A stretch of 32,000 bases of DNA from Fibrobacter succinogenes subsp. succinogenes S85 (GTDB lineage: Bacteria; Fibrobacterota; Fibrobacteria; Fibrobacterales; Fibrobacteraceae). The position numbers and the translations under genes are program-made. This document shows positions 6,419 to 32,000 of the stretch, piece by piece. The stretch's first letter is position 1; every line of letters starts with the position of its first letter. The stretch covers positions 1,350,001 to 1,382,000 of the forward strand of contig NC_017448.1 of the NCBI RefSeq assembly GCF_000146505.1, read 5' to 3'. Under the pieces are notes generated by a model, which saw only the letters and a list, made by a program, of their open reading frames with translations, searched no databases and was not told the origin of the DNA.

Positions 6419-6456
6419 AAAAACGCTTCGCCGTTAAAACAGCGAAGCGTTTTTTT
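6419..6456. terminator. Bidirectional intrinsic terminator between convergent genes
   Basis: CGCTTCGC (6424-6431) / GCGAAGCG (6442-6449) form an 8-bp stem. It is flanked by A5 on the left and T6 on the right, and abuts the stop codon of the minus-strand gene. Confidence 0.7.
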
Positions 6457-8488: not shown

Positions 8489-8668
8489 TGAACACTCCAT
8501 TTTTTCTTAATATAAATTCCATGCTCCAAAATGGACCATTCCGCCGCCCAATTTCCGTTGAAGTCAATACAACAGGGTTTAACGATTATGATAGCCGCGA
8601 CATTGACGGAATTAGCCAAATCCTATAGCCAGTTATTGGTTCTGCACAATTGCCGTCCCTTGTAAAAA

Positions 8669-17806: not shown

Positions 17807-17866
17807 TTTTGCTAGGCTCAAAAGTGGGCCTGTAAACAGTCCCGTTTCACTCGCCTTACGCAAAAG

Positions 17867-17883
17867 TTTCTAAATTTGCCTCG
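17867..17883 (+). promoter_or_regulatory. Promoter-like box TTTCTAAATTTGCCTCG upstream of gpmI
   Basis: Contains TAAATTTG, which matches the Bacteroidetes-type -7 consensus TAnnTTTG. It lies 24 nt before the gpmI ATG and is a near-identical copy of the box upstream of cysS. Confidence 0.35.
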
Positions 17884-17906
17884 TAAACATTTTTAATGGA
17901 GTAAAT

Positions 17907-19541
17907 ATGCTCAAGAAACTTTCCAACTTCCCTGGCATCAAGGGCCCGGTCGTCACCATCGTGATGGACGGTTTTGGTATCACCGATAAGGTCGAAGGCA
18001 ACGCCATCAAGGCCGCCCGCACCCCGACTCTCGACAACCTCTTCAAGATGTACCCGAACGTCCTCTTGAAGGCCCACGGCCGCGCCGTCGGTATGCCGAC
18101 CAACGAAGACATGGGTAACTCCGAAGTTGGCCACAATGCTATCGGTGCTGGCCAGGTGTACAACCAGGGTGCAGCCCTCGTTGCAGACGCCATCAACAGC
18201 GGCGACATATTCGATCGCGATGCTTGGAAGGAAATCTCCGGCAACGTTCGTGAAAAGAACACCGTTCTTCACTTCATCGGCCTCTTCAGCGATGGTAACG
18301 TTCACTCCAACATCGCTCACCTTAAGGCCATGGTTGCCCAGGCCAAGAAGGAAGGCGTCAAGAAGGTTCGCGTTCACATCCTCCTCGACGGTCGTGACGT
18401 TCCGGAAACCTCCGCTCTCGATTACGTCGGCCCGTTCGAAAAGTTCCTCGACGAACTCCGCTCTCCGGAATTCGACGTTTGCATCGCTTCTGGCGGTGGC
18501 CGTATGCAGATCACCATGGACCGTTACAACGCTAACTGGAAGATGGTGGAACTCGGCTGGAAGACCCACGTGCTCGGCGAAGGCCGCTACTTCGACAACG
18601 CTACGCAGGCTATTGAAACCCTCCGTGGCGAAACCAAGGCTATTGACCAGGACCTCCCGCCGTTCGTGATTGCTAAGGATGGCGCTCCGGTTGGCACCAT
18701 CAACGATGGCGACTCCGTGGTGTTCTTCAACTTCCGTGGCGACCGCGCCATCGAAATCACCCGCGCCTTCGAAGAAGAATCCTTCAACGAATTTGACCGC
18801 AAGCGCTTCCCGCACGTCTGCTACGCCGGCATGCTCCAGTACGACGGCGACCTCAAGCTCCCGAACCGCTTCCTCGTTCCGCCTCCGGCAATCAAGGAAA
18901 CCAGCGGCGAATGGCTCGCTGAAACGGGCGTGAAGCAGTTCGCTTGCTCCGAAACGCAGAAGTACGGCCACGTGACCTACTTCTGGAATGGTAACCGTTC
19001 CAGCAAGTTTGACGGCGAAACCTACCTCGAAATCGAATCTGACGTTGTTCCGTTCGAACAGCGCCCGTGGATGAAGGCTGCCGAAATCACCGACGCCATG
19101 ATCGAAGCTTTGAAGAGCGGCAAGTACCAGACTCTCCGTTGCAACTTCCCGAACGGCGACATGGTGGGCCATACCGGTTCCTTCCGCGCCGCTACGATGG
19201 CTATCGAAGCTGTGGACATCGGCCTCGCCCGCTTGCTCCCGGTGATTGACGCTCTCGGTGGTGTTGCAATCATCACGGCTGACCACGGTAACGCCGACGA
19301 AATGTACGAAATCGACAAGAAGACCGGCATGCCGAAGGTCAACAAGGACGGCACCTTCAAGGCCAAGACAAGCCACACCCTCAACAAGGTGCCCTGCATC
19401 CTTTACGATAACGTAACGGGTGGCAAGCTCGGCCTCAAGGAAGGCGACTGGGGTCTTTCCAACATCGCAGCAACGACCGCGAACCTCCTCGGCCTCGAAA
19501 AGCACGAGGCTTGGGACGACTCGATGCTCATCATCAAGTAA
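17907..19541 (+). CDS. gpmI: 2,3-bisphosphoglycerate-independent phosphoglycerate mutase (plant/kinetoplastid-like long form)
   Basis: 544 aa. Motifs: MGNSEVGHNAIGAG, GGGRMQITMDRY, YAGMLQYDGDLKLP, FACSETQKYGHVTYFWNGNRS, NGDMVGHTG, ADHGNA. TGGAG RBS. Confidence 0.93.
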   Translation: MLKKLSNFPGIKGPVVTIVMDGFGITDKVEGNAIKAARTPTLDNLFKMYPNVLLKAHGRAVGMPTNEDMGNSEVGHNAIGAGQVYNQGAALVADAINSGDIFDRDAWKEISGNVREKNTVLHFIGLFSDGNVHSNIAHLKAMVAQAKKEGVKKVRVHILLDGRDVPETSALDYVGPFEKFLDELRSPEFDVCIASGGGRMQITMDRYNANWKMVELGWKTHVLGEGRYFDNATQAIETLRGETKAIDQDLPPFVIAKDGAPVGTINDGDSVVFFNFRGDRAIEITRAFEEESFNEFDRKRFPHVCYAGMLQYDGDLKLPNRFLVPPPAIKETSGEWLAETGVKQFACSETQKYGHVTYFWNGNRSSKFDGETYLEIESDVVPFEQRPWMKAAEITDAMIEALKSGKYQTLRCNFPNGDMVGHTGSFRAATMAIEAVDIGLARLLPVIDALGGVAIITADHGNADEMYEIDKKTGMPKVNKDGTFKAKTSHTLNKVPCILYDNVTGGKLGLKEGDWGLSNIAATTANLLGLEKHEAWDDSMLIIK

Positions 19542-19571
19542 TGAGCTTGCGGACAAGCGCCGCGAACCATT

Positions 19572-19602
19572 AAAAAAGGAACCCTTCGGGGTTCCTTTTT
19601 TT
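19572..19602. terminator. Strong (bidirectional-looking) intrinsic terminator after gpmI
   Basis: AAAAAAGGAACCC-ttcg-GGGTTCCTTTTTTT. The GC core stem is 7 bp, extended by A/T pairs, with a T7 tail. Confidence 0.8.
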
Positions 19603-19656
19603 GCATTTTGGCGAAGTCCGATAATGTTGAAAAAAAAAGTTTTCATTCCTTTCAAA

Positions 19657-19671
19657 AAAACTTATCTTTAA
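19657..19671 (+). promoter_or_regulatory. Conserved cassette-upstream 15-mer AAAACTTATCTTTAA (copy 1)
   Basis: Identical 15-mer at 27673-27687 upstream of the second cassette, followed in both by ..AGAAA. It contains TATCTTTA, which is close to TAnnTTTG. Confidence 0.4.
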
Positions 19672-19703
19672 TTCCAGAAACGATGTTGGAATGAGGAATT
19701 AAA

Positions 19704-21029
19704 ATGAGTTTTAATTCTAGAGAGGGTTTTACCCTTATAGAGCTAATGGTCTACATAGCTCTACTTGGTGGTATAGTGCTCTTGGCGGGCCAGGCTTTTA
19801 GCGACAGCACCAAAATGCGTGTCCGTACGCAGAGCATGCTGCAAGCCAACCAGACCGCGGGTAACGTAGGCACGATCCTCAAAGAGGACATCGCACAGCT
19901 TGGCGCCAAAAGCTCAAAAGAAGCTGGCGGCGGAACCATGGACGTATTCAACACCGACCATATTCACGACGTTTACATGGATCCCGATGCTACAGAAGAT
20001 GCAGACAAGGATTCATCTTCATTCACAATCGTAAAAAACGACGACGGAGACGGCAGGGACAAAATCACCATGCGCCGTCTGCGCTATTCCGATGCAGGCG
20101 CCTACCAGGCCGTCGAAGAAGTGACCTGGTTCCTTGAAGACCGCGTCCTTAAGAGATCTTGCAAAAGCACAAGCGCCCTGGTCGAAGATGCAGAATGCCC
20201 ATCGGAAAACGCTAGCGTGGTTACAATCGCAGAACACGTGGACAAGTTCTCGCTCACGCCCGCGAAGCCCACTACAGAAGTGGCCTCCGTCAGCGTACTC
20301 CCCTCATCCAGCGAATCAGACAAGAACTTTAAACTGGTTTCCCGTTTTGGCGATGAAAACTTCGAGCCCGTAACGATTGCCCCCGAAGAAGGCGGCACGT
20401 CTATTAAGCTTTCGGGCTTTTCCATGAATTACAACTTTACCACTAGCGAACCGATTAGCAATCCGGACATGATCAAGGCGAACCAGGTTTTCGTTTCCAG
20501 TCTCGGAAGCAGCTTGAGTTCCTGGGGAGCCCAGTGCATCCAGGTCACCTTAAGTCCCTATATTGAATACGAAATATCCTTTTCCATGCCCTATTCCGCA
20601 ACGGATGACCCCAGCAGAATGTTCTGCCCAGGCAGGGACCACATGGCTGTAGGCTTCAGGTATGCCGAGAACGGCAACAAACTCGACGGACTGAGCGATT
20701 TTCAGTTCTACCCACCAACCGTCGGCGATGAGCGCGACACGGGGCTCCGCAAGATGCGCTTTACGACAAACACGACTTATGAAAACGTCTGTCTAGGATT
20801 CACTTTCGTCAGTTTCTCTCCTGTAGCCTCTTCAGGGAACATCACCATTTCAAACGTCAGGCTCCGAAAGGTTCCAAGTTCAAACTATACGTTCACGGAC
20901 GAGGCTATCGCAACAGCCGACAAGAAAAACGTAAAAGCCATCAAGCTGGAGCTATCCATCAACAAGAATGGCGAAGCCGGAGCCGAGACAGCGATTATAT
21001 CAATCCCAAGCAACGGCCCAAGAGATTAA
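19704..21029 (+). CDS. Large prepilin-type N-terminal cleavage/methylation domain protein (PilW/GspJ-like minor pilin candidate), P1
   Basis: MSFNSREG|FTLIELMVYIALLGGIVLLAGQAF class-III signal with Glu at +5. TGAGGA RBS. 441 aa. It is a paralog of 27755-29176 and shares the C-terminal ...PSNGPRD. Confidence 0.85.
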   Translation: MSFNSREGFTLIELMVYIALLGGIVLLAGQAFSDSTKMRVRTQSMLQANQTAGNVGTILKEDIAQLGAKSSKEAGGGTMDVFNTDHIHDVYMDPDATEDADKDSSSFTIVKNDDGDGRDKITMRRLRYSDAGAYQAVEEVTWFLEDRVLKRSCKSTSALVEDAECPSENASVVTIAEHVDKFSLTPAKPTTEVASVSVLPSSSESDKNFKLVSRFGDENFEPVTIAPEEGGTSIKLSGFSMNYNFTTSEPISNPDMIKANQVFVSSLGSSLSSWGAQCIQVTLSPYIEYEISFSMPYSATDDPSRMFCPGRDHMAVGFRYAENGNKLDGLSDFQFYPPTVGDERDTGLRKMRFTTNTTYENVCLGFTFVSFSPVASSGNITISNVRLRKVPSSNYTFTDEAIATADKKNVKAIKLELSINKNGEAGAETAIISIPSNGPRD

Positions 21030-21050
21030 AAAAAATTGAGGAGTGTGGTT

Positions 21051-24000
21051 ATGTTTAGTAAAAAAGGTGTTTCTCTTGTAACAGTTCTCCTGTTTATGCT
21101 CGTCGCTACAATCGCAGCGACAGCGACATTCAAATGGCTCACTTCCGAGAACCGTTCTTCGGCAACGAGAATGCAGACTCAGGAAGCACGCCAGAGCGCC
21201 ATCGCCGGCATCCAAAGCACCAGAGCCTGGATGACCAACAACGCAAACGAAGTCGGCGCCCTTGTGCGCCAATACGTCCTCGGCGGGAAGCAGCCCATCT
21301 TGCTCAACAGCCGAGTTTCCCCGCACATCAGCAGCAAGCAGGATTTCAACGTCTGGCTGACCGGTGTTAGTGAAACCAACGGCTACTTCAAATTCAAAAT
21401 TCTCTCTGAAGGTATCGCACGCAACGATTCAAAGCACACCGAAGCAGCCATCATCAACGTTTCAGGGCTTTACCAAGTATCAATTCCAGAAATCGAAGAA
21501 GAGGAAACATACAAGAACATCGCCTACGACTACTCGTACTTTGGAGGTTCCATCTCGAACCATGGCGATGCCAAACTTTCATCCATGCTAATCAACGGAA
21601 ACTGGTCGGGAAACCCGATTGGCATTGACAAAAACATCATCATCACAGGACATGCCTCACTTTCCGGTGACAACGTCGATATTTACGGAACAGGTTGCAT
21701 CGGTGGAGACCTCTATACCGATAACGGAATAGAAGCCAAAAATCTCTACGTACACGGAACAGCTCATAAGTACGGTACAAAAAACAAACCTGGAAACCAA
21801 GGCGTATCAAACCACGCCTATTTTGACGGAATCGTTGAACAAGATGCCACAAAGCCATTCCTTGTTGGCGGCAACTTGACGATCAAGAATGTATTCAAAA
21901 CCCACATGGCATCCGGCAACAATCCGGTGACAATTAACGGAAACCTCTGTATTGATTCCGCAATATCCCAAATCCAGATTGGTGAAGCATCAGGAGCAAG
22001 CCCTAGCGATTTACAAAATTTTACCGTCAAAGGTGATGTTTGGGCTTCTCATACAAATGCGTTCTATACAAAAGGCGGCGATTTTCACGAATACTATTAC
22101 AAGCTCATTCTTGGCGAAAACGAAGGTTCTAAAGTTTATCTTCCGGACGCCTTCCACTCTAATGATTATGTCACAATGCGAAATTCCAAAACCTGGAATG
22201 ACTACATGCCCTATATCTATGTAGAAGCCGCTCCAAGCAAATACTACTTCTACCATGTGGAATCCGGTGTTACAGACGTCACCTACGACGGGTCCAAATA
22301 CTTTGTCGGTGGTTACCAGTACCCGCATCACTATAACTATAGCTACGTTCCAAGAAAACTATCTCCATACTGCAACAAGGATGAAAACTCTGAAAAACCA
22401 GTACTCCGCGTGACCCCCTGGTTTAAATCCAATGGGACACTTACGAACGAACACCAGGCCACTAAGCCCATTGCCTGCGCCGACTCCGTCAAGCAAGTCT
22501 GTTACGACATTTGGGAAGAAAAGCCGGGATGCGACGGAGCAAGCTTTAAGGTGGATGACATTTTAAAGACGGCTTACAGCCAGTTTGAAAAATACGCTGA
22601 TAGCGGCTGTGCAAAAGATATCACAACATTAAACGATAGTTTCCCTGAAGTAGCCAACACTTGCTATGACGACAACACCAAAGATGACTACAAGAAAAAG
22701 AACCACATGTACAACGGCTATCTCGTTGTAAAAATCGAGGCGAAACAGTTAAGTCAAAATTACGGAGACGGGCTCAAAGGAAAGTTCATCATCATAGTAA
22801 CTAACAAGCCGGGACAGGTCGCTTTTCCGCCTACAGAAGGAACAAATGATTACGTATTTCTCTACCTAACACAAGGTGCCGGTGAACTGATGGGGCTTGG
22901 TACGAGCAATTATAATTACTTCATCTACACCAAAGAAGACATCGGATCATCAACGTATAGTGAAACAACACATCAAATCACTCCTAGTGGCGGAATTCTT
23001 TTCAACCACGCATCCCTCAGCGGATCCGTGTATGCCGAAGTCGGAACAGGAACCAAATGCGCCAAAGTGGCCGCACTGACGTCCTCCAAGCCATTGCTAT
23101 TCAATCAAGACTTGATGAACAGCCTGACCATAAACCGCATCATTTGCGATGCCTCCGTTACAAACTGCGGTGGTGCGGCATTCTCATCATCGTCCTCGGC
23201 GGCTCCCATGAGTTCATCCGCATCCGAAGAAAGCATCAATGGCAAGGACCCCTACTATATCTCCATTGCGCCTCAGCTAAACGTTACGCTAGAATCACAA
23301 TACAAAGCTACAGAAGCAGCACCCGAAGACGCAAGCAACATCGACCCCTCCATTCTTGTGATTCCGCGAATCATTTACCTTTCCAAGAATGCAGCCGGAA
23401 AACTTGCTGATTATTATTCCGTCTTGAGTCTGAACGGCGCAAACGAAAACAAGAGCCCATCCAAAGTCAGTTGCAATGGCTCATTTTCGACAACAGAAAA
23501 GCTTTACACAGGAACAGAGCTGACTCCCGGAACATACACCTGTAACTACGCTTCAACAAATTACGGAACCGTTCCGTTCTATGTTGTTGTAAGCAACGCC
23601 AGCGGAGAGCTCCCGATCGTTTCGTTCCCAACAGCACCGCTAGACGTTCAGGCACTTAGCTTAAACTCCAGTGTCGATGTATCGGTACATATCGGCAAGG
23701 CCACCAACACTAGCGGGAAAATCAAATTTGACGTGGCCATAAACCAAGCCATCAATGGCTGGACTATAACGCCAAAGGCTGGTGTTACAGCACGCAGCGG
23801 AAGCGGAAGCGCCCTCTACTATACAGTCGAAGTCACCCCCAACGCCACAGCGGAACAGGACATCGAAATCTTTACGATATCCGCAAGCAGCAACGCCGAT
23901 GACGGAGACATGTACTTTACGCTCAGCGCACCGACAGAGCTTTGCCGACTCGTATCGGGTGCAGGCCTCAACCACCATGTTTATCTCAGAGCCCACACGA

Positions 24001-27000
24001 CCATCAACAAGGGCGAACTTTCCGATTACTGCGCCATCAACGATTGCGACGAAGACATGCAAGAAAAGAGCGAGCGCCCAGACTGCGAAATCAGCGACGA
24101 ATGGGTTATCGCTCATGGCACTGCCTGCAGCATCGTAGAAAAAAACTACAGCTGGAAATGCTTGACAAACACAGCCATTTCACTGGCATCCGTAAGTTCA
24201 GCCGACATCCCGCAAGCATGCGAGATTATCATTCCATCTACAAACAACACCATTACAACTCCTGTCGGCGGAGAAACAAGGAATCTATACGGATCCCTCA
24301 AGCGCAAAAAAGTCGAATTGATTGTCAACCTCAAGAACGCATTCGACAAGAGCACTTCCGTCACGTTTCAAGGGCAGTCCTACTCGCAGAGTGAAACTTG
24401 TACAAAGGAAAACAGCCCCTGCACATTCCACGTGCTGGCTGGCGAACAGTATGTATTCACGCACGAAGAATACGGCGAAGACCAGGGGAATTTCAATTAC
24501 TGGGCTTGCGAAGGCGACAACTGCACAAATCCGACAACGCATGAAGACGAGCCCACATTTACATTCTACGGGCCGCACACGATTTCTGCCGAATTTAACA
24601 AGGAATCGCATTGCTATTATGACGACTTCTCGAACATCGGTGCATTCTGCTCCAACGGCGATGAAAACTGCATAGACACTTGCGCAACAGCCCTTTCCAA
24701 GGGAACGCATTGCGCCCCGAAGAACAGCAAACAGCACAAGTCGCACTGGCTCATGACCTACCACAATAGCGGTTCGGGCAACAATGCCGACTATGTCCGT
24801 CCCAACTTCGGCGCCGGTTCCATTTTTGCGTCCAACACCAGCAACGCAAACAACCAGAGCGGAAAAGTTTCCGTCATCCTCAGAAACATGACGGCAGGGC
24901 TGTACGGAACGATGTTCTCTCTCGTCCAGACTTCCGTGCTTGAAAAAGCAAATTCCAATGACTTCCTCAATTCCGGTTTTATCTTCAGGAGCAACGGCAA
25001 TGAACACTTGATTTTGAACGTTTACGGAGTCAGCAAGCCTAACAATAGTGGCGAATTGACATTCCGCGTCTGCAAAGTCAGCGGGCAATCCATCAACAAT
25101 ACAAACAAGGGGTCCTGCCAGCTTGTCTCCAAGAAGGAAGGTTCATCTCCGCTCTCCATAACGAGCAACACATTTATTAAAGTCCGATTCACCATTGATG
25201 ACAACGACTTGCTGAGCATCACCGCCAAGGTCGATGACGACACCTGGGAGGGCGAGCTCAATGTCAGGGACTTCGGCTGTAACGATGCCGACAACGCATT
25301 CGTAGGCATCAGCCTAGCCGACCCCGATTTCAAGATTTACGACAACGGCTGGGTTCCTTCGTCATTCGATGAAACATGCTGGGACGTGCCAACCGTCACC
25401 TGCAACTTTGTTGACAAATACGAAATCGTCCCCCTTAACGATTACGTATCGCCGAAGGTTCTTATCTCTAGCTGGTTCTCCGAAAAGAACTGCTATACCG
25501 AATACTATTACAATGGTTGCGACAACGCGACATCCACTTGCGTAAACGGCACAGGAACCCCAGGCGAAATAGGCTCCAAGCTGAGTGGCGAAACATACAA
25601 GTTCACTCAGGACGGTCAACACGGCTACCTCATTGACGAAAACAAGAGAGCCCAGGACGCTTCCATCAAGGTGGTTTGCCCCGGTGATGCCGGCAGTCTT
25701 GACCTTGCCCAGGACTACTATAGTTGCGGTACGTTCCAAGTCGGGACTACACAGAACTGCATCCACGATTTTGAAATCTGGAACGAAACCCAGTACATGA
25801 GCGCGAACGTTCCGTACGAATTCCCAACGCCGAAAACCAACGGTGTCAACTTGCGCGAAGCCAAGCTCCATATCAACGTGAAAGTAGACGACATCAAAGA
25901 CGGCAACGATCTTGGAACAAACTTGAAAGTCTATTTGCAATCCGCCAACAAGATGCAGAGCTTGACAAGAACGATAAGCGCGGCTGGCCCGCACGACATA
26001 AACGTGGATGACCTCATCGGAACTACAGGATTCAACCCGGAACAGGTCACTAACGTCGTCATCACAAGCGACAACAGTATCAACATCGAAAAATTGCACA
26101 TCCACAGCAACTGTCCGAACAAGCTTGACCTCAAATGCGAACAAGCCGTTTACGACTATACCAAACTTGGATGGAAAATCAAAATCAATCCGCAAAAGGA
26201 CGGAGTCAAGTGCTCTTACACGTCTTCGGACATGAACATTGATTCCGAAACCGATGTCAACTGCAGCGATGTCGTTTATCTCCAATACAAAAATGGATAT
26301 GTCAACAACTGGATTATCTATAACGATTTGCCGACATTTACCGTAACAGCGACCAACAACTTCGGCTCCGAATCGTGTAGCATCAAGGGAGAAAGACCCG
26401 GGAACAACAACATCACCTGCAGCGTCCCGTCAGACCAACAGACAATCCCGTTCGATTCAAAGGCGCCGACATTCAACTTCAAGTTTGGCGAAAACGCCTA
26501 TGGATGGGATTACAACGTCACCTACAAGGCCTATTTAGACAATGAGGTTGTCAAAGAAGGCAGCGCCAAACTCGGCGCCCAGCAATCTTACACGCCTTCG
26601 GATTCCGACGTCAAGCCCTCAAGCGGAGCGCACACCTACAAGGTCGATTTCACCATCGGTGCCTGGACACAGTCCTGTAAGGCAACGTTCACTGTTGAAG
26701 ACAAGACAAAACAGGCTCCCACAATCAGCTCCTGCAGCGTTACGGACAACGGCAAATTCACGGCGGTTGTGAGTAACCCCGATGATGTCAATTACACTTA
26801 CACGTTTACCATCATGGACAACATAGGCAACAAGCTCGTTGACGGAGCGACAGGCACGGGGAACGAAACGAGCCTTGAGTACACATACGCTCCAGGAAAA
26901 GAGGGAACATATAGATACACTGTCAAAATCGGCGAAAGTTCCTGCACAAAGCAAAGGACAGTTTCTTCGCCCATTGAGCTCAAGTGCCAAGACATCACGG

Positions 27001-27548
27001 GACAGAACGCAAGCGACATGATTACCGTAAATCCGATAGTCAACAACTGCTCCGGCTGTACTTACAAGATATTTGACGGAGAACTGGAAAAGAGTTCAGA
27101 CCTAACATTCAGTGATCCCAATGCTACAGGGACAAAGAAATACCGCCTACGGGCTACAGACGAAAACGACAACGTAGCAAATTGCGATTTCAACGTTTCG
27201 TTTAACAGCGAAAGCAACCAGACTACGACACTTGTGCATAGCGACAATCCAAGCTGGGAGTACTTCGCAGAAGGGAGCCACAAGGTCAAATGCACCGGAA
27301 AACAATACTACGGTCACTTAGTATGCAAATGTCCAAATTCCGCATGGAATTACTACGACTGTAGAATGAAATACAATGGTACAGAAATCCGGGTATCCTC
27401 AAACCAGAGTGTTTCAGTAGATGGATCAAACTCACAGTGCTACAACAACTACGTGGCCACTATTGAAATCCTGTCGCCTTACACGACCGGATACAACAAC
27501 CAAACACTCACTCAAGGCCGCGGAATGTACTGCGCCCATACGTGGTAA
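21051..27548 (+). CDS. Giant (2165 aa) Cys-rich protein with PilX/GspK-like E5-less pilin N-terminus, G1
   Basis: ATG 21051 is preceded by GAGGAG (21038-21043); the 21036 start in the track is TTG. The N-terminus reads MFSKKG|VSLVTVLLFMLVATIAATATF, then RMQTQEARQSAIAGIQSTRAWM and FKFKILSEGIARN...AAIINVSGLY. The long extension has beta-helix-like, Ser-linker, lectin-like and Cys-bracketed repeat segments. Confidence 0.85.
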   Translation: MFSKKGVSLVTVLLFMLVATIAATATFKWLTSENRSSATRMQTQEARQSAIAGIQSTRAWMTNNANEVGALVRQYVLGGKQPILLNSRVSPHISSKQDFNVWLTGVSETNGYFKFKILSEGIARNDSKHTEAAIINVSGLYQVSIPEIEEEETYKNIAYDYSYFGGSISNHGDAKLSSMLINGNWSGNPIGIDKNIIITGHASLSGDNVDIYGTGCIGGDLYTDNGIEAKNLYVHGTAHKYGTKNKPGNQGVSNHAYFDGIVEQDATKPFLVGGNLTIKNVFKTHMASGNNPVTINGNLCIDSAISQIQIGEASGASPSDLQNFTVKGDVWASHTNAFYTKGGDFHEYYYKLILGENEGSKVYLPDAFHSNDYVTMRNSKTWNDYMPYIYVEAAPSKYYFYHVESGVTDVTYDGSKYFVGGYQYPHHYNYSYVPRKLSPYCNKDENSEKPVLRVTPWFKSNGTLTNEHQATKPIACADSVKQVCYDIWEEKPGCDGASFKVDDILKTAYSQFEKYADSGCAKDITTLNDSFPEVANTCYDDNTKDDYKKKNHMYNGYLVVKIEAKQLSQNYGDGLKGKFIIIVTNKPGQVAFPPTEGTNDYVFLYLTQGAGELMGLGTSNYNYFIYTKEDIGSSTYSETTHQITPSGGILFNHASLSGSVYAEVGTGTKCAKVAALTSSKPLLFNQDLMNSLTINRIICDASVTNCGGAAFSSSSSAAPMSSSASEESINGKDPYYISIAPQLNVTLESQYKATEAAPEDASNIDPSILVIPRIIYLSKNAAGKLADYYSVLSLNGANENKSPSKVSCNGSFSTTEKLYTGTELTPGTYTCNYASTNYGTVPFYVVVSNASGELPIVSFPTAPLDVQALSLNSSVDVSVHIGKATNTSGKIKFDVAINQAINGWTITPKAGVTARSGSGSALYYTVEVTPNATAEQDIEIFTISASSNADDGDMYFTLSAPTELCRLVSGAGLNHHVYLRAHTTINKGELSDYCAINDCDEDMQEKSERPDCEISDEWVIAHGTACSIVEKNYSWKCLTNTAISLASVSSADIPQACEIIIPSTNNTITTPVGGETRNLYGSLKRKKVELIVNLKNAFDKSTSVTFQGQSYSQSETCTKENSPCTFHVLAGEQYVFTHEEYGEDQGNFNYWACEGDNCTNPTTHEDEPTFTFYGPHTISAEFNKESHCYYDDFSNIGAFCSNGDENCIDTCATALSKGTHCAPKNSKQHKSHWLMTYHNSGSGNNADYVRPNFGAGSIFASNTSNANNQSGKVSVILRNMTAGLYGTMFSLVQTSVLEKANSNDFLNSGFIFRSNGNEHLILNVYGVSKPNNSGELTFRVCKVSGQSINNTNKGSCQLVSKKEGSSPLSITSNTFIKVRFTIDDNDLLSITAKVDDDTWEGELNVRDFGCNDADNAFVGISLADPDFKIYDNGWVPSSFDETCWDVPTVTCNFVDKYEIVPLNDYVSPKVLISSWFSEKNCYTEYYYNGCDNATSTCVNGTGTPGEIGSKLSGETYKFTQDGQHGYLIDENKRAQDASIKVVCPGDAGSLDLAQDYYSCGTFQVGTTQNCIHDFEIWNETQYMSANVPYEFPTPKTNGVNLREAKLHINVKVDDIKDGNDLGTNLKVYLQSANKMQSLTRTISAAGPHDINVDDLIGTTGFNPEQVTNVVITSDNSINIEKLHIHSNCPNKLDLKCEQAVYDYTKLGWKIKINPQKDGVKCSYTSSDMNIDSETDVNCSDVVYLQYKNGYVNNWIIYNDLPTFTVTATNNFGSESCSIKGERPGNNNITCSVPSDQQTIPFDSKAPTFNFKFGENAYGWDYNVTYKAYLDNEVVKEGSAKLGAQQSYTPSDSDVKPSSGAHTYKVDFTIGAWTQSCKATFTVEDKTKQAPTISSCSVTDNGKFTAVVSNPDDVNYTYTFTIMDNIGNKLVDGATGTGNETSLEYTYAPGKEGTYRYTVKIGESSCTKQRTVSSPIELKCQDITGQNASDMITVNPIVNNCSGCTYKIFDGELEKSSDLTFSDPNATGTKKYRLRATDENDNVANCDFNVSFNSESNQTTTLVHSDNPSWEYFAEGSHKVKCTGKQYYGHLVCKCPNSAWNYYDCRMKYNGTEIRVSSNQSVSVDGSNSQCYNNYVATIEILSPYTTGYNNQTLTQGRGMYCAHTW

Positions 27549-27574: not shown

Positions 27575-27603
27575 AAAGCTCCCCATTTGGGGAGCTTTTT
27601 TTT
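27575..27603 (+). terminator. Strong intrinsic terminator after G1
   Basis: AGCTCCCC (27577-27584) -attt- GGGGAGCT (27589-27596) followed by T7. Confidence 0.8.
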
Positions 27604-27754: not shown

Positions 27755-29176
27755 ATGGAGTTTTTTAGCCTAATGGCAAATAAAGGTACGAAAGTAAAGA
27801 TGCAACGCGCATCCGGTTTTACCCTCATTGAGCTGATGGTCTACATAGCCCTTCTTGGAGGTATCGTCCTCATCGCAGGCCAGGCGTTCAGCGACAGCTC
27901 CAAGATGCGAATGCGAACGCAGAGTATGTTGCAGGCTTCAGAAATAGCAGAAAAGGTGGCTGTAATATTCAAGGCAGATGTCGCACAGACTGGAGCGAAA
28001 ACGTCTATGGAAGATGGCACATCAGAATCTGGGGCGGAATACGGCAACAAATTCAGCAATATCTACACGAGCGTTTACATGGACCCAAGCGTTGACAATA
28101 AAGATTCGTCCTCATTTTCCGTCGTGACCAAAAACGGTTTCGACAGCCTTACCATTCGACGTTTGCGTTACGACGAATCCGGACATTACTCAGCCGTTGA
28201 GCAAATTGCCTGGTTCGTCCGAGACGGATCGCTGTGGCGCAACTGCAGAGTCCTAGAAAAGAAAACAACCCTCTCTGACGACGACCCCTGTACCGACGGC
28301 GCTACATCCGAGCCTAACAATATTGAAATGGCTTCAGGAGTAAGCAAATTCAAAGTTACACCAGGAAAGCCAAGCGTTGTAGGGGACAACATCCAATTAT
28401 TCCCAGGCGCAGGCGAATCCGAATTCAGGCTTGTCGGTAGAAATGACGGGGACCGCGAGATGCCGATTGTAACCAATGAAGCAGGAGAAACGCACAAAGG
28501 CGGAAGCACCCAAATTATATCGGGATTCTACCAGAACTACGACCAAAGCATGCAAACCATAAAAAGCGAAGCCGCCCGAAAGATCAACGAAGTTATCGCT
28601 GTCCGCAACGAGACGTACCCAGATTTTTCGTGGCAGACCCTTTGCGCCCAAGAAGGCAGCAACTTCACGTTTGAACCGAACAATGAGTACGAAATTTCAT
28701 TCGAAATTCTGCCCACCGACGAAAATGCAGACAAAAGCAAGTTATTCGTCCCTGGAGAAGACCACATGTCCGTTGGTTTGCGAAGTCTTGAGACTGGAGG
28801 CCCAATTACGTATGGAGACCCCGCCACAAAAATTAGTGATTTTGCCTTCTTCCCTCCTTTGGGCGTCAAAAGCGAAGGAAGCGGAGAACGCTCCATGCGT
28901 TTTTCAGTCCCTATCAAGATTACAAAAGCATGTCTCGCGTTCACGTTCGCCTGCTATTCCCCTCTCGTATCACAAGGGAAAATATCCATCTCAAAATTGA
29001 AAGTCCTAAAGATACCCAGTGCTAACTACAAATTCGAAAATTATGATTTCGAAGCAAACAAAATTGACAAGCAGAACGTAAAGGCGTTTCTGCTAGACCT
29101 GGATATCAGAATCAGAGGCGAATCTGGACATGTTGAATTGGTCGTTCCCACACCAAGTAACGGGCCGCGCGATTAG
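27755..29176 (+). CDS. Large prepilin-type N-terminal cleavage/methylation domain protein (PilW/GspJ-like minor pilin candidate), P2
   Basis: ...MQRASG|FTLIELMVYIALLGGIVLIAGQAF with Glu at +5. The best SD (GAGGG) serves ATG 27755. Alternative starts at 27773 and 27800 would give shorter leader peptides. The C-terminus reads ...PTPSNGPRD*. Confidence 0.85.
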   Translation: MEFFSLMANKGTKVKMQRASGFTLIELMVYIALLGGIVLIAGQAFSDSSKMRMRTQSMLQASEIAEKVAVIFKADVAQTGAKTSMEDGTSESGAEYGNKFSNIYTSVYMDPSVDNKDSSSFSVVTKNGFDSLTIRRLRYDESGHYSAVEQIAWFVRDGSLWRNCRVLEKKTTLSDDDPCTDGATSEPNNIEMASGVSKFKVTPGKPSVVGDNIQLFPGAGESEFRLVGRNDGDREMPIVTNEAGETHKGGSTQIISGFYQNYDQSMQTIKSEAARKINEVIAVRNETYPDFSWQTLCAQEGSNFTFEPNNEYEISFEILPTDENADKSKLFVPGEDHMSVGLRSLETGGPITYGDPATKISDFAFFPPLGVKSEGSGERSMRFSVPIKITKACLAFTFACYSPLVSQGKISISKLKVLKIPSANYKFENYDFEANKIDKQNVKAFLLDLDIRIRGESGHVELVVPTPSNGPRD

Positions 29177-29184
29177 GAGGATTT

Positions 29185-32000
29185 ATGTATAAGCAAAAAA
29201 ATATGAAATCCGGTGTGTCTCTTATCACCGTGCTGATGTTCATGCTTATTGCAACAATAGCTGCAACAGCCACCTACAAGCTACTCACAAGTCAAGGACT
29301 CTCTAGCGAAAGCAGAATGCGCCAACAAGAGGCTTATCAAAGTTCACAAGCAGGCATTGAAAGTGCCAGAATGTGGATGACATTCCACGCAAACGATGTT
29401 GGCGCTTTGGTAAAGGCTTTCATTGACGGAGGCAACAAGCCTATTAATCTTGATGCAAGGTTACGCCCTTTGCAGCGTGCAGGGCAAAATTACCACGTAT
29501 GGCTTACGGGAGTGAACACCGAAAAGAACACGTTCAAATTAAAAATCCTTTCATCCGGCGAATCCAAGAACAACACACAATGGAATGAAACGGCCATATT
29601 TAACGTAGATGGGTTGTATCGAGTCAGGCTTTTTGAAGAAGAAGAATATAGCGCCATTCCGTTCAGATACAATTACTTTGGTGGTTCAACTCAATCACAA
29701 GGCCATATGAAGGCATACTCTTTGCTAATTAACGGCAATACAGAAGGATCCAACCCTATATATACAGAAAACGACCTGATTGTTACGGGAAACGCCATTG
29801 CATCAGGTAATTCCATTGGAGCAGGAACCACAGTATGCATTGGAGGGAATCTTGATGCAAGCAACGGCGTACTCGGCAACGATTTCTATGTCGGAGGAAA
29901 CGCAGCTCACTTCACATTTCCGTCATCATCTGAACCAGCCGGTCTCTACAACGCAAACGTCACAGGTAACGTCTACATAGAAGGCAACCTTGAAGCACCA
30001 ACCACAGGCGATCAAAAATTCCAGAAGAATCTGACAGTCAACGGCACATGGTATACAAACTTTTCAGCGCACGATTCCCGTGTCGCAGGGAACATGTGCT
30101 TAGGGGAAAACGGCCAAGTTCTCATTAGCGAAAAAAATCCCGCACGTGATTTTCTCGTCGGCGGAAACGTTTGGGCAGAATCGACATACCCCATATGGAT
30201 TACAAACGGAGAAGACAACGAAGGCGAATACAACAAGATTATTATTGGAAACAAAAAAGATTCCAAAGTTTACATCAAGAGCGCCCACCCCATCGCTGAT
30301 TACGTAACACTCAGAAACAACAGAACATTTATCGAAAAGAACACCTATTACAAGGGATCCTATACTTATGGATCTCAAGCCAAATGGGATAACAAGACAA
30401 CCCGCCCATACCCAGATTTAAAGCCCCACATGAAGAACAAAAACGACGCCTACTACCTTTACTACTACAACGGTCAAGGCCAAGATGTCGACTACATCGT
30501 TTCTAATGCAGGAGGATGGGGCTGGGGCGCACAAGCGTATTACGCTAACTATTATGTCGGGAACAAAATTTTCTACACCCCCCAAAGTGGCTATTGGGGA
30601 TCGTATGGCTATACCGCAGAAAAAAACAACTTCTTGAATTACCAGAACGGCACACCGACAGGCTCGCCATACTGCAAGGCGACTCCAGATAAGTGGCGCC
30701 CCGAATGCCGAGTTACCCCGTGGTTTAAATCCCAGGGAACCGTATCAAGCGAAATGCCGGCAAGCCAACCTTTTGAATGCGCCGAATCCGTCAAGACCTA
30801 TTGCAACAAGCTCTGGAAAAAGAAAGAAGGCTGCGATGGTGCAAGCTACAAAGTTGACGACATTCTCGTAACCGCCTATAACCAATTCATATCGTACGCC
30901 AACAAAAACTGTAGCAATGTAACACACTGGGGCGACAACATGAGTCGCTATCTTAACGAATGCTACAAAGAAAATAGCTCCGATCCAACCAAATACAAGA
31001 ACAACCTTTACAACGGCTACCAAGTCGTTGAAATTAAAAACCGAACTGAACTTAAAAACCCCACCACCCCCTTAAAGGGCAAGTTTATCATCGTCGTAAC
31101 ACAGGCTTTAGGACAACAAAATTTGCCGCCGACTACAGCAGATTCCTATGTACTCCTCTATCTGAAAGAAGGAGCAAGCTCCACGATTCAAGCAGCGGTT
31201 GAAAACGGCATATACAATTATTTCATCTACACCAAAAAAGACATTGGCGGACTCCTATTTAACAACTCCACTTTCAGCGGCTCGGTTTATGCCACCGCAG
31301 ACAACTGCGCAAAAGTGGGCGATTTCAAGGCACGCTCCTTGGTATTCAACGACGACATGATGAACGATTTGTCGGCAAACGCCGTCATTTGTAACGCATC
31401 TGTAGGCGAAAGTTCTTGCGGAGGCGCAGCAACGGGAACTTCAGGATCCTCATCGTCTTCCTCAGAATCGACAGAAAAACTATTCGATAGCTATTATATT
31501 TCAATGGCTCCGCAATTGGGCGTAAGACTAGAATCCCAAAACAAGAGTTCAGAAACACCTCCACAAGCAAGTAGCAACAACATCACAGAGCTTTCTCCCT
31601 CATTCATTGTACTCCCGCGAATCATTTACTTGCCCAGCGACCCCTACGGACAGCTGACCGACTACTACAATGTACAAACGCTCAACAGCAATGGTGCGGC
31701 CCTGAGAAAATCAGATGTAAACGTATCTTGCTCCGGGCCGGGAGCACTGTCTACAACCGGCAATCTCTATACGGGAACAGCTCTCAGCAGAGGACTTTAC
31801 ACATGTACCGCTACGGCAAGCAATTACCCGAGCATTCCATTCTGGGTCCACGTCGGAAAAGACACCCGCGGAACAGCGACAATCGTATTTGAGAAAGAAT
31901 CCGAAGAAATGGATGCCAACGACTTAAAAGAAGTCAAGCTAGAAGTCCCAGCACATGCTGCAGAACTCACTGTAAACTTCTATTGCCCCGATGTTGAAAA
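29185..32000 (+). CDS. Second giant PilX/GspK-like-N-terminus protein, G2 (5' partial in window; open to the window end)
   Basis: Not in the supplied ORF track because there is no stop codon in the window. ATG 29185 is preceded by AGGAGG (29175-29180), which overlaps the P2 stop codon. I translated the frame by hand and found no stop through 32000 (at least 938 codons). The N-terminus reads MYKQKNMKSG|VSLITVLMFMLIATIAATATYKLLTS...RMRQQEAYQSSQAGIESARMWM...FKLKILSSG. It aligns with G1 in conserved islands. Confidence 0.8.
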   Translation, partial: MYKQKNMKSGVSLITVLMFMLIATIAATATYKLLTSQGLSSESRMRQQEAYQSSQAGIESARMWMTFHANDVGALVKAFIDGGNKPINLDARLRPLQRAGQNYHVWLTGVNTEKNTFKLKILSSGESKNNTQWNETAIFNVDGLYRVRLFEEEEYSAIPFRYNYFGGSTQSQGHMKAYSLLINGNTEGSNPIYTENDLIVTGNAIASGNSIGAGTTVCIGGNLDASNGVLGNDFYVGGNAAHFTFPSSSEPAGLYNANVTGNVYIEGNLEAPTTGDQKFQKNLTVNGTWYTNFSAHDSRVAGNMCLGENGQVLISEKNPARDFLVGGNVWAESTYPIWITNGEDNEGEYNKIIIGNKKDSKVYIKSAHPIADYVTLRNNRTFIEKNTYYKGSYTYGSQAKWDNKTTRPYPDLKPHMKNKNDAYYLYYYNGQGQDVDYIVSNAGGWGWGAQAYYANYYVGNKIFYTPQSGYWGSYGYTAEKNNFLNYQNGTPTGSPYCKATPDKWRPECRVTPWFKSQGTVSSEMPASQPFECAESVKTYCNKLWKKKEGCDGASYKVDDILVTAYNQFISYANKNCSNVTHWGDNMSRYLNECYKENSSDPTKYKNNLYNGYQVVEIKNRTELKNPTTPLKGKFIIVVTQALGQQNLPPTTADSYVLLYLKEGASSTIQAAVENGIYNYFIYTKKDIGGLLFNNSTFSGSVYATADNCAKVGDFKARSLVFNDDMMNDLSANAVICNASVGESSCGGAATGTSGSSSSSSESTEKLFDSYYISMAPQLGVRLESQNKSSETPPQASSNNITELSPSFIVLPRIIYLPSDPYGQLTDYYNVQTLNSNGAALRKSDVNVSCSGPGALSTTGNLYTGTALSRGLYTCTATASNYPSIPFWVHVGKDTRGTATIVFEKESEEMDANDLKEVKLEVPAHAAELTVNFYCPDVE

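Follow-up and report, generated by a model that had tools for sequence, protein, structure and literature searches.

A giant modular protein with a PilX/GspK-type N-terminus in Fibrobacter succinogenes S85: a candidate pilus-tip fibre adhesin

Results

Gene organization of the G1 locus

The analysed window is a 32,000-nt stretch of the genome of Fibrobacter succinogenes S85, to whose forward strand all coordinates given below refer. Translation of positions 21036-27548 yielded a single unbroken reading frame, which contains the intact coding sequence of G1 (21051..27548, + strand; 2,165 aa plus stop). The likely start of this gene is the ATG at 21051, which is preceded, at a distance of 7 nt, by the ribosome-binding site GGAG (21040..21043, +). 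The G1 ORF is not a chance one, because 704 homologues of its product were found and, among the 120 matches listed, many align co-linearly with 95-100% of the query. The mature protein has a calculated mass of approximately 237 kDa and a pI of 5.1. As the original prediction had proposed, cysteines are abundant: 59 were counted (2.7% of residues). In an alignment of 20 family sequences, conservation reaches 90% or more for 36 of them and 70% or more for 49.

All of the peptides quoted in the original prediction were found in the G1 translation at their positions, namely AAIINVSGLYQV (aa 132-143, nt 21444-21479), the NGNWSGNP...HGTA stretch (aa 182-238, nt 21594-21764), FSSSSSAAPMSSSASEES (aa 711-728, nt 23181-23234), HCYYDDF...IYDNGW (aa 1187-1434, nt 24609-25352), the fragments of the Cys-bracketed modules (aa 1788-2052, nt 26412-27206) and CKCPNSAW...YCAHTW (aa 2092-2165).

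The obligate partner gene of G1 is pil441 (19704..21029, +), whose stop codon is separated from the ATG of G1 by 22 nt. It encodes a 441-aa prepilin-type protein with the leader MSFNSREG followed by FTLIELMV, i.e. with Glu5 and a canonical G/FTLIE motif (Pfam N_methyl, E 9e-5; TIGR02532, score 16.9 versus a cutoff of 16.3; weak GspH/GspJ N-terminal matches). All 70 related loci contain a pil441 homologue together with the giant gene, and in approximately 67 of them it ends directly upstream on the same strand. The upstream boundary of this two-gene unit is a terminator-like hairpin located after the iPGM gene (19572..19601, +; 13-bp stem, 4-nt loop, T-rich tail). Another such hairpin (27575..27598, +), placed 27 nt past the G1 stop, has a 10-bp stem with 6 GC pairs, followed by TTTTTGTGAT.

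The prepilin and giant-gene pair is tandemly duplicated, both in the window and in Fibrobacter sp. UWB7. The second pair of S85 consists of pil473 (27755..29176, +), a paralogue of pil441 (42% identity) that may in fact begin with the ATG at 27800 (its leader would then read MQRASG, ahead of FTLIELMV), and of G2 (29185..32000, +), a PilX-type gene that runs past the end of the window (> 938 aa) and shares 40% identity with G1 over aa 4-885. The UWB7 orthologue of G2 has 2,418 aa. Both the organism, a rumen or gut Fibrobacter, and the surroundings of G1 are fibre-degrading: the window also carries genes for two GH10 xylanases and one Cthe_2159 family protein.

Near the G1 locus no pilus or secretion machinery genes were found. 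A single partner pilin is present beside G1, while known priming complexes contain three or four minor pilins. Elsewhere, genes for a prepilin peptidase, PilC, PilM/N/O, PilQ and several PilT proteins are present in the analysed Fibrobacteres genomes, that of F. succinogenes S85 among them, and PilB is encoded by all except one of these genomes (PMC4704652, Table 4).

The N-terminal pilin module

The first 146 residues of G1 (21051..21488, +) comprise a leader and a complete small pilin fold. AF2 modelling predicted a 55-residue alpha1 helix (aa 9-63), two short helices (aa 65-77 and 86-92) and a 4-stranded sheet (strands 98-109, 112-122, 128-138 and 140-144), and the module boundaries given in the original prediction agree with this secondary structure. 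The class III-type leader MFSKKG is followed by VSLVT, with Thr at position +5 and no Glu5. These features are common to the family: Gly6 is conserved in at least 90% of its members, the consensus at +5 is Thr (VSLIT, no Glu), and the helix sequence, like Gly at -1, is near-invariant throughout.

PilX_N (PF14341) matched G1 with E 7e-4 and a score of 19.9, i.e. below the Pfam gathering score of 25.5; among 20 family members it was found in 16, at E 6e-6 in the best case. The GspK N-terminus (NCBIfam NF037980) was found in 18 of 20 members, and its match to G1 (score 13.6, far under the cutoff of 130) covers model positions 2-63 alone, the remainder of the model being unaligned. These matches, together with the predicted helix and sheet and the prepilin gene located 22 nt upstream, uphold the proposal of a pilin anchor. 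Judged by sequence, the N-terminus is of the PilX/GspK tip-subunit class, an assignment that does not separate a type IV pilus from a type II filament. Relatives of G1 are named by NCBI 'pilus assembly PilX N-terminal domain-containing protein'. The pilin fold is followed by an acidic flexible linker, IPEIEEEET (aa 147-155; 21489..21515, +; pLDDT < 50).

Domain architecture of the stalk

The rest of G1 was expected to form a modular, beta-rich and Cys-rich extracellular stalk, which was supported by structure prediction. The AF2 models of the two protein halves both had a mean pLDDT of 83-84, and Foldseek matched tandem chains of Ig, Big and FN3 domains with a probability of 1.0; the top structural matches were tandem Ig-like surface or adhesion chains, including GhpA, SpyCEP, cadherins and cohesin. 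Pfam models cover nothing of the G1 family outside the N-terminal helix.

A beta-solenoid with Gly/Asn/Asp turns was predicted at aa 156-470 (21516..22460, +), with approximately 30 strands, mostly of 3 residues, one per 5-10 residues. The solenoid character of this segment had been anticipated correctly, but not its extent, which had been placed at about aa 181-327. Its sequence gave non-significant matches to left-handed beta-helices (1kqa, E 0.24; YdcK, E 0.15). The solenoid is followed by a conserved Cys-rich domain (aa 471-706; 22461..23168, +; pLDDT mostly 85-96), composed of a helical subdomain (aa 478-552) and a beta part (aa 557-700), with 8 Cys, each conserved in 89-100% of sequences. 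Searches of this domain against Pfam, NCBIfam and PDB gave no match. The predicted Ser-rich linker was also recognized (aa 707-730; 23169..23240, +); this disordered segment is the sole long low-confidence stretch of G1 (pLDDT 28-41 at aa 711-726).

Beyond this linker G1 is predicted to be almost wholly beta, with approximately 12 beta-sandwich domains. Four domains were delimited by AF2, invariant columns and Foldseek within aa 731-1186 (23241..24608, +): beta-sandwich A (aa 731-852), carrying an invariant PR...G.L.DY...N motif, beta-sandwich B (aa 853-964), a Cys-rich alpha/beta domain (aa 965-1060) and beta-sandwich C (aa 1061-1186). Foldseek matches in this region were to SpyCEP, TIE, cadherin, cohesin and CLIPPER domains. 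BatD/DUF11 and CarboxypepD_reg gave sub-threshold matches in one relative. Aa 328-708 and 731-1186, that is the remainder of the solenoid, the Cys-rich domain and these four domains, are absent from the original prediction.

The next segment (aa 1187-1439; 24609..25367, +) consists of a Cys-rich lead-in and a beta domain of approximately 210 aa, predicted with 12-13 strands (the long ones of 8-12 residues) and a pLDDT of mostly 85-94. Its suggested likeness to ConA, LamG or DUF1080 folds gained no support beyond the secondary structure: a profile of this block (A8) gave nothing significant in Pfam or among PDB sequences, and fold searches returned whole-chain Ig matches alone. Two further beta domains (aa 1440-1690; 25368..26120, +) contain conserved cysteines at positions 1443, 1451, 1481, 1543, 1559, 1570 and 1688.

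The four Ig-like modules of about 90 aa postulated near the C-terminus (aa 1691-2064; 26121..27242, +) were recovered by AF2 as four beta-sandwiches (aa 1691-1782, 1783-1885, 1886-1973 and 1974-2064), bracketed by Cys 1696/1776, 1790/1876, 1895/1965 and 1979/2045, respectively. For this region Foldseek gave a probability of 1.0 with chains of GhpA, titin and MG domains, and likewise with viral Big and Ig chains. The protein ends with a Cys-rich cap (aa 2065-2165; 27243..27545, +; terminal C-x3-W), for which AF2 predicted a beta domain, in line with the C-terminal cap proposed before. The cap pattern is common to part of the family, and PDB and Pfam searches with it gave no match. Searches of G1 and of 20 family members revealed no T9SS C-terminal domain, autotransporter barrel, LPXTG motif or lipobox.

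Distribution and variability of the G1 family

In homology searches the G1 family proved closed and confined to Fibrobacterales, with only 301 representatives among 1.84 billion proteins, mostly of 1,900-3,081 aa. This length variation results from module insertions near the distal end; relatives carry 89-272 additional residues inserted at about aa 1963.

The alleles of G1 are mosaic, with the solenoid and the C-terminal cap being the most divergent. The solenoid shares 56-70% identity with the UWB7 allele, whereas the flanks on both sides are 97-99% identical. For aa 2001-2165 the identity is 71-72% with allele P0001 (96% identical) and 43-60% with UWB7, the cap (aa 2065-2165) being the most variable part of G1.

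A C-proximal CBM64-like module of approximately 90 aa is present in 50 of 123 family sequences (~40%). Its profile matched solved CBM64 structures (5lu3, E 6e-5; 5e9p, E 3e-4), and Pfam CBM64 was found in 6 of 11 such modules (best E 5.5e-6). They resemble the cellulose-binding CBM64 of Spirochaeta thermophila glycoside hydrolases (5e9o, 5e9p, 5lu3), with which they share the core ...NG...DG.[YW]YI; however, they have an added Cys-rich start (C-x-C-x2-3-C), and the matches are marginal. G1 itself has neither a CBM64-like module nor any recognised carbohydrate-binding module, and its Cys-rich cap is unrelated to the CBM64-like module of the relatives.

Discussion

The G1 N-terminus has close counterparts among PilX/GspK minor pilins, which have a short leader ending with Gly and a hydrophobic alpha1 helix without Glu5, are encoded directly behind a Glu5-bearing minor pilin (pilW-pilX, gspJ-gspK), and would act as the topmost subunit of the priming/tip complex. 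The likeness is limited to the first 50-65 residues and, in G1, lies below curated thresholds. Moreover, these proteins have approximately 200-330 aa, compared with 2,165 aa in G1, and the rest of the four-pilin set is not adjacent to G1.

In its general plan, a small pilin module and a short flexible linker that would display functional modules at the filament tip, G1 also resembles modular pilins such as PilB (vWA module) and PilC (ConA-like lectin module) of Streptococcus sanguinis, ETEC CofB and Thermus ComZ (beta-solenoid); ComZ is a precedent for a pilin-borne solenoid, and PilC for carbohydrate binding (PMC8179133, PMC9934059). In contrast to these proteins, G1 has approximately 16 domains instead of 1-2, its modules lack any database signature, and it belongs to the Glu5-less class, not to the canonical IPR012902 pilins.

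The PilY1/PilC tip adhesins are likewise large (>100 kDa) and modular, with a variable ligand-binding end; at the tip of type IVa pili they are presented through the minor-pilin complex. Whereas G1 carries a pilin module of its own, PilY1 does not belong to the pilins, its defining feature being a C-terminal beta-propeller, and no PilY1/PilC family was among the Pfam matches of G1 and 20 members. The best Foldseek matches were to fibrillar adhesins and giant surface proteins built as Ig chains, for instance the Aureispira 'grappling hook' GhpA (9flp, 9fly), also an extended stalk of long Ig-like beta-sandwich strings. This likeness reflects the fold in general (10-12% identity, TM 0.1). GhpA has no pilin anchor, and its anchoring and export routes differ.

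We consider it probable (roughly 60%) that G1 represents a giant, modular member of the PilX/GspK class of minor pilins, acting as a tip-located fibre adhesin with exchangeable distal modules. Its processing, tip position, export, adhesion and ligand are inferred, as set out in the following model. Prepilin peptidase would cleave the short basic leader MFSKKG after Gly6, and the hydrophobic alpha1 helix would keep G1 in the inner membrane while approximately 2,000 residues fold in the periplasm, disulfide bonds probably stabilising the folded body. GspK of type II secretion pseudopili has no Glu5. Since G1 lacks this residue too, it would occupy the top of the filament-priming complex, on the Glu5-bearing Pil441. 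The growing filament would then drive the G1-Pil441 complex outward via the secretin, so that the pilus tip would bear a flexible stalk (solenoid, Cys-rich domain, Ser-rich hinge and approximately 12 beta-sandwich beads), several tens of nm long by our own geometric estimate. The distal modules, which the family seems to swap (extra Ig modules, CBM64-like and putatively cellulose-binding modules, different caps), would bind plant cell wall material. For adhesion or carbohydrate binding by G1 the sole direct hint is the CBM64-like module of some relatives.

The lack of Glu5 and the GspK N-terminus as the sole NCBIfam signal (18/20 members) would also suit a giant GspK analogue at the tip of a type II secretion pseudopilus, instead of a type IV pilus that is extended and retractile. 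In that case the stalk could lie at the secretin or immediately beyond it, and serve as an adhesin fixed to the surface or provide docking for secreted enzymes. A single Glu5-bearing partner, weakly GspH/GspJ-like at its N-terminus, recalls GspJ-GspK, and a type II pathway has been reported in F. succinogenes (PMC3079729). We nevertheless regard this as unlikely: the GspK alignment is confined to positions 2-63 at a score of 13.6 (cutoff 130), the fit of PilX_N is no worse, gsp genes are lacking next to G1, and the analysed Fibrobacteres genomes, including that of S85, encode PilT retraction ATPases (PMC4704652). It is less probable still that G1 is no filament subunit at all, its N-terminus being an uncleaved signal anchor or signal peptide on a conventional giant surface or periplasmic fibrillar adhesin. 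The sub-threshold PilX_N match, the absence of machinery genes nearby and the resemblance of the body to fibrillar adhesin stalks are consistent with this idea, but AF2 predicted a full pilin head domain, more than a helix, and the near-invariance of Gly at -1 and of the helix, the canonical prepilin partner in 70/70 loci and the lack of detectable alternative sorting signals (T9SS C-terminal domain, autotransporter barrel, LPXTG, lipobox) argue for a filament subunit. In addition, the stalk, when extended, would by our estimate be longer than the periplasm is wide.

Parallel beta-helices are frequent in pectate lyases and glycosidases, and aa 471-706 are strongly conserved with a fold lacking a known match. 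G1 might accordingly be a pilus-displayed enzyme, with a catalytic solenoid (e.g. a lyase- or hydrolase-like beta-helix) or aa 471-706 domain, or a scaffold recruiting glycoside hydrolases. Modular pilins with predicted peptidase modules do exist (PMC8179133). This seems very improbable, as no catalytic family was matched in Pfam, NCBIfam or PDB sequences across 20 members, and the solenoid is among the most divergent allelic regions, which would be unusual for an active site scaffold.

A plant-fibre adhesin at the pilus tip is the most likely role of G1. In its favour, pilins have been implicated in Fibrobacter attachment to cellulose (PMC4668043, PMC6851124). Against it stand the sub-threshold PilX_N and GspK scores of G1, the absence of machinery genes close by, the single partner pilin and the lack of a recognised carbohydrate-binding module in G1, as well as an in vivo study of F. 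succinogenes that placed the emphasis on outer membrane vesicles, not pili (PMC8092306). In the literature we found no paper naming Fibrobacter together with PilX, and nothing on the expression, processing or localisation of any G1 family member. The statement of the original prediction that no characterised minor pilin reaches the size of G1 agrees with the InterPro survey of modular pilins by Raynaud et al. (2021), in which the largest protein had 860 residues (PMC8179133). G1 would extend the known modular pilins to approximately 2.5 times the length of this most extreme surveyed case.

Reading frame and N-terminus of G1

The frame extending from 21036 to 27548 (+) of the translated window is open throughout and constitutes a single ORF. 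Its likely start is the ATG at 21051, which is preceded by GGAG at 21040–21043. From this codon the giant gene G1 encodes 2,165 residues (approximately 237 kDa once the leader is removed; pI 5.1), among them 59 cysteines; in a 20-sequence family alignment, conservation is ≥90% for 36 of these cysteines and ≥70% for 49. Database searches retrieved 704 homologues of G1, and many among the best 120 of these 704 are co-linear with it over 95–100% of the query, which argues against a chance reading frame. Among the homologues are an allele sharing 96% identity with G1 and a protein of Fibrobacter sp. UWB7 sharing 80%, the latter named by NCBI “pilus assembly PilX N-terminal domain-containing protein”. 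The original prediction described G1 from the sequence as a pilin module fused to a long chain of repeat domains. This description was borne out in detail, all of the quoted peptides being found in the translation where they had been placed, and the interpretation built on it is supported in part.

G1 begins with a short leader that is hydrophilic for the most part and ends in Gly (MFSKKG), followed by approximately 20 hydrophobic residues (VSLVTVLLFMLVATIAATATF). Conservation across the family reaches at least 90% for Gly6 and for the residues of the helix. The mature N-terminus, VSLVT (family consensus VSLIT), carries Thr rather than Glu at position +5. The absence of Glu5 is a hallmark of the GspK/PilX subunit, which caps the priming complex. 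The PilX_N model (PF14341) matched G1 with 19.9 bits (E 7e-4), i.e. under its gathering threshold of 25.5 bits, and matched 16 of 20 relatives at E values up to 0.5 (best 6e-6). The GspK equivalog model (NF037980) gave 13.6 bits with G1 against a cutoff of 130, with model positions 2–63 of 307 aligned, and its N-terminal ~60 positions matched 18 of the 20 relatives, far under the cutoff. Orthology with GspK was rejected on the basis of this score and of an alignment confined to the N-terminus; G1 is thus similar to GspK in its N-terminal part, without being an orthologue.

Predicted structure of G1

G1 was folded with AF2 as two halves (aa 1–1186 and aa 1150–2165) using a 34-sequence family alignment, and the mean pLDDT values were 82.7 and 83.8, respectively. 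In the resulting model aa 1–146 form a textbook small pilin fold, consisting of a long helix (9–63), two short helices and four antiparallel strands (98–144). This predicted lollipop arrangement of helix and sheet has a pLDDT of about 84–89 in its globular part and, together with the class III leader, upholds the proposal of a pilin anchor. It is followed by an acidic linker of low confidence (aa 147–155) and by a predicted beta-solenoid (aa 156–470) of approximately 30 very short strands with Gly/Asn/Asp turns between them, a pattern that fits stacked coils with regular turns. Comparison of the solenoid with left-handed beta-helix proteins gave non-significant matches (galactoside acetyltransferase 1kqa, E 0.24; YdcK, E 0.15), and none of the top 50 Foldseek matches of the N-terminal half was a solenoid. 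The earlier comparison with bactofilins is not supported; no bactofilin family occurs among the Pfam matches of G1 and 20 relatives.

The next region, aa 471–706, is predicted with high confidence as a helical subdomain with a beta part, and contains eight cysteines that are 89–100% conserved. A Ser-rich tract (aa 711–726) is the sole long disordered stretch of the model. Beyond it the model shows three beta-sandwiches and one Cys-rich alpha/beta domain (aa 731–1186), a Cys-rich lead-in with a beta domain of ~210 residues and 12–13 strands (aa 1187–1439), two more beta domains (aa 1440–1690), four Cys-bracketed Ig-like modules of ~90 aa (aa 1691–2064) and a Cys-rich beta cap ending in C-x3-W (aa 2065–2165). 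For the aa 1187–1439 block, a putative lectin-like domain that had been likened to ConA/LamG or DUF1080 jelly-rolls, a profile gave no significant match in Pfam or among PDB sequences. The cap profile likewise gave nothing significant in PDB or Pfam, and a database search with it returned fragments only. The terminal C-x3-W motif (window 27528–27545) closes the sequence of many family members (CAHTW, CKHDW, CATDW, ITNCW), whose preceding caps differ.

In Foldseek searches against PDB and BFVD both halves matched chains of tandem Ig, FN3, cadherin, cohesin and MG-domain surface proteins with a probability of ~1.0, and the best match of the C-terminal half was the Aureispira grappling-hook protein GhpA. 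Whole-chain tandem-Ig matches dominate these searches, and no query ranges are reported. The matches are generic: they support the predicted stalk of beads, as the original prediction of a modular beta-rich stalk had it, and assign no individual domain. The four Ig-like modules that it proposed were recovered in the AF2 secondary structure as tandem beta-sandwiches of 7–9 strands and ~90 aa, with Foldseek matches of probability 1.0 that refer to whole chains only. The Pfam PKD match in G1 is weak (E 0.46), and membership of the Ig/FN3/PKD group is therefore indicated at the level of fold only. BLAST self-comparison of G1 detected no internal sequence repeats, which suggests that the Ig-like modules are old and divergent.

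Several known classes of surface protein were also looked for. Neither G1 nor 20 relatives contained a Pfam match to the C-terminal beta-propeller of PilY1/PilC, or a Pfam or NCBIfam match to any catalytic family. The T9SS sorting domain (Por_Secre_tail), which both GH10 enzymes of the window carry, was not found by Pfam in G1 or its relatives.

Partner gene and genetic neighbourhood

Directly upstream of G1, and separated from it by 22 nt, lies pil441 (19704–21029, +), which encodes a 441-aa protein with the leader MSFNSREG followed by FTLIELMV, i.e. a canonical prepilin motif with Glu5. Strong terminator-like hairpins precede pil441 (19572–19601) and follow G1 (27575–27598, 27 nt past the stop codon), an arrangement suggestive of a single bicistronic unit. 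The order of a Glu5 minor pilin followed by a Glu5-less pilin mirrors that of gspJ-gspK and pilW-pilX. A pil441 homologue was found in all 70 related loci of species-representative genomes, in approximately 67 of them directly upstream on the same strand; as judged from gene content, the pairing is obligate.

This cassette is duplicated in tandem within the window (27755–32000). The second prepilin-type gene, pil473 (27755–29176), encodes 473 aa and is 42% identical to pil441. The giant gene of this second pair, G2, begins at 29185 and continues past the window end; over aa 4–885 it shares 40% identity with G1. The corresponding region of strain UWB7 reads UvrB, a 350-aa ORF, iPGM, pilin-like, giant, second pilin-like, second giant (2,418 aa) and PheS; another species carries one pair only. 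This synteny, the names of the homologues and the fibre-degrading genes of the window identify its source as a Fibrobacter. Having recognized the anchor and the stalk, the original prediction had passed over the tip class of the pilin, its partner and the tandem copy of the pair, as well as the aa 471–706 domain.

No pilus or secretion machinery genes are adjacent to G1, and the window contains neither the prepilin peptidase gene nor assembly genes. According to a published survey, all analysed Fibrobacteres genomes encode a prepilin peptidase, PilC, PilM/N/O, PilQ and several PilT proteins, and all but one encode PilB (PMC4704652, Table 4).

Some other features of the neighbourhood are worth recording. 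Two GH10 xylanases, each ending in a T9SS sorting domain, and a 681-aa carbohydrate-binding protein of the Cthe_2159 family (270–1736, 3533–4936, 6455–8500 (−)) constitute a fibre-degradation context, which is separated from G1 by housekeeping genes. An MFS transporter is split into two overlapping ORFs in different frames (10272–10895 and 10643–11551); in the related Fibrobacter contigs L004 and L005 a single gene of 423–439 aa occupies this position, and the split probably reflects a frameshift, due either to pseudogene formation or to an assembly error. Between uvrB and the iPGM gene lies a 348-aa ORF (16431–17477) with a hydrophobic, signal-peptide-like N-terminus followed by Cys and without a Pfam or NCBIfam match, whose position is kept in UWB7 (350 aa) and in another species (344 aa). 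UWB7 carries a 200-aa Fib_succ_major-domain gene between iPGM and the pilin-like gene (L001, 7903–8505); in the window this place (19541–19704) holds no such gene and is occupied by a ~160-nt spacer with a terminator. A 599-aa ORF (17856–19655, −) antisense to the iPGM gene (Pfam E 7e-72) can almost certainly be dismissed as a spurious shadow of that gene.

Distribution of the family

When aa 1–705 of G1 were compared exhaustively, by phmmer, with 1.84 billion cluster representatives, only 301 proteins matched at E ≤1e-3 and 278 at E ≤1e-10, mostly of 1,900–3,081 residues. The family is thus a closed one, which lacks a fringe of distant relatives and consists throughout of giant proteins. Past the N-terminal helix, no Pfam or NCBIfam model matched any of 20 diverse members, and comparison of a whole-family profile with PDB sequences revealed no solved relative, the single match, to a left-handed beta-helix, being non-significant.

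The loci originate from Fibrobacter, Hallerella, Fibrobacteraceae and Fibrobacterales assemblies, with two or three copies in several genomes, and from a few oddly labelled bins. The latter (L015, L016, L028 and L048) are assigned to Sodaliphilus sp., Alistipes onderdonkii, a Bacteroidaceae bacterium and a Methanomethylophilaceae archaeon; each contains a Fibrobacter-type pair, and in L015, L016 and L048 the coordinates of the partner-gene match are near-identical or identical. These are most likely mislabelled bins rather than evidence of a wider distribution.

CBM64-like modules and variation between alleles

Sub-threshold CBM64 matches were observed near the C-terminus of two distant family members. 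A profile built from 11 aligned modules matched the solved CBM64 of Spirochaeta thermophila (5lu3, E 6e-5; 5e9p, 3e-4; 5e9o, 2e-3), and six of the 11 modules matched Pfam CBM64 (best E 5.5e-6). The module is Cys-rich, ~90 aa long and follows the pattern C-x-C-x2-3-C...GCYF...VNVNG...DGG[YW]YI. Of 123 family sequences 50 carry it, in every case within the last ~400 residues; some relatives have it twice, and in some it forms the C-terminal domain. Among its carriers are P0022 and P0023, which are 47–51% identical to G1, as well as P0031, P0052, P0077 and P0091. The module profile matched neither G1 nor its UWB7 orthologue nor the UWB7 G2, and G1 has no CBM64 (PF18666) of its own. The possibility that the G1 cap is itself such a module was rejected (hhalign probability 0.5%).

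Length differences within the family are concentrated at three sites: a loop at aa 384–414, a point at ~aa 1963 and the region after aa 2068. The inserts at ~aa 1963 comprise 89–272 residues, equivalent in length to between one and three additional Ig-like modules. Identity between alleles is also uneven. P0001 (96% identical to G1 overall) is 96–100% identical over most of its length, with 84% at aa 501–600 and 71–72% at aa 2001–2165. The UWB7 allele P0007 (80% overall) is 97–98% identical over aa 1–200 and 99% over aa 601–800, falling to 56–70% over aa 201–500 (56–57% over aa 301–500) and to 43–60% in the cap. The mosaic identity of these two alleles and of P0005 indicates, at the level of sequence comparison, that alleles have recombined, and the solenoid and the C-terminal cap appear to be hot spots of this exchange. 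Such mosaicism and the exchange of distal modules are as expected of a surface-exposed, ligand-binding tip. A diversity-generating retroelement was considered as the source of the C-terminal variability and rejected, the sole direct repeats being those due to G1/G2 paralogy; the Pfam scan of the larger ORFs of the window revealed no reverse transcriptase.

Proposed function

We propose, with a probability of roughly 0.6, that G1 is a modular pilin of the pilus tip. The protein would be processed by prepilin peptidase, would fold in the periplasm, probably with the formation of many disulfides, and would cap the priming complex together with the pil441 product. It would then pass through the secretin at the tip of a type 4 filament that drives it outwards. 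The stalk, hinged at aa 147–155 and 707–730 and several tens of nm long by our own geometric estimate, would offer the distal modules to plant cell wall polymers as putative ligands. A carbohydrate-binding or adhesin function is plausible for G1, although the clues to it are indirect.

G1 may instead sit at the tip of a type II pseudopilus, which sequence cannot tell from a type IV pilus tip; we regard the pseudopilus as an unlikely location. That G1 is a conventional giant adhesin, using its hydrophobic N-terminus only as a signal anchor, would agree with the stalk of beads, but seems improbable, since the predicted pilin head is complete and a prepilin gene invariably accompanies G1-type genes. 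A pilus-displayed enzyme, or a dock for enzymes, is very improbable; no catalytic signature was found in G1 or the 20 relatives.

The tip-pilin reading can be extended, tentatively and with considerable doubt, to the suggestion that giant PilX-type proteins and their partner pilins are the primary adhesins of Fibrobacter for cellulose and plant fibre, with two or three alternative tip cassettes per genome. Their recombined distal parts would be CBM64-like modules, extra Ig modules and different caps, and retractile type IV pili would capture fibres and draw the cell into the tight contact needed for cellulolysis. These proteins might also be the unexplained cellulose-binding outer-membrane proteins of >200 kDa reported in the 1990s.

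That the N-terminus belongs to a pilin had already been flagged by annotation pipelines, and the concept of modular pilins is established. G1 resembles PilB with its vWA module, PilC with its lectin module, CofB and the beta-solenoid protein ComZ (Raynaud et al. 2021, PMC8179133), but has 2,165 residues, and its relatives up to 3,081, whereas the largest modular pilin of that survey had 860. Functionally it would be akin to a PilX fused with a PilY1-type tip adhesin, while not itself being a PilY1. Pilins have been invoked for adhesion in models of Fibrobacter cellulolysis, adherence-defective mutants lack a type IV pilin, and pilin transcripts are modestly up on cellulose (PMC4668043, PMC6851124, PMC3079729); giant PilX-type proteins are not mentioned in these papers, and our literature search found no paper featuring both Fibrobacter and PilX. 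As far as we know, four features have hitherto gone undescribed: the size of the protein, a string of conserved but unclassified domains that extends over ~2,000 residues and lacks relatives in Pfam or among PDB sequences, the organization as an obligate cassette of two genes, and tips that can be exchanged and may be CBM64-like.

The family takes the modular pilin idea to an extreme, with ~16 domains and 237 kDa carried on a Glu5-less tip pilin, and poses the mechanical problem of priming so large a load and exporting it through a secretin. Fibrobacter is among the most effective cellulose degraders of the rumen and grips crystalline cellulose without a cellulosome. To our knowledge, published models refer to “pilins” and fibro-slime proteins and name no defined adhesin. 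The family therefore provides a concrete candidate, a predicted tip-displayed adhesin of 2,100–3,000 residues, many members of which have a CBM64-like module at the very position expected of a tip that binds ligands. Its newly described features bear directly on how Fibrobacter grips cellulose.
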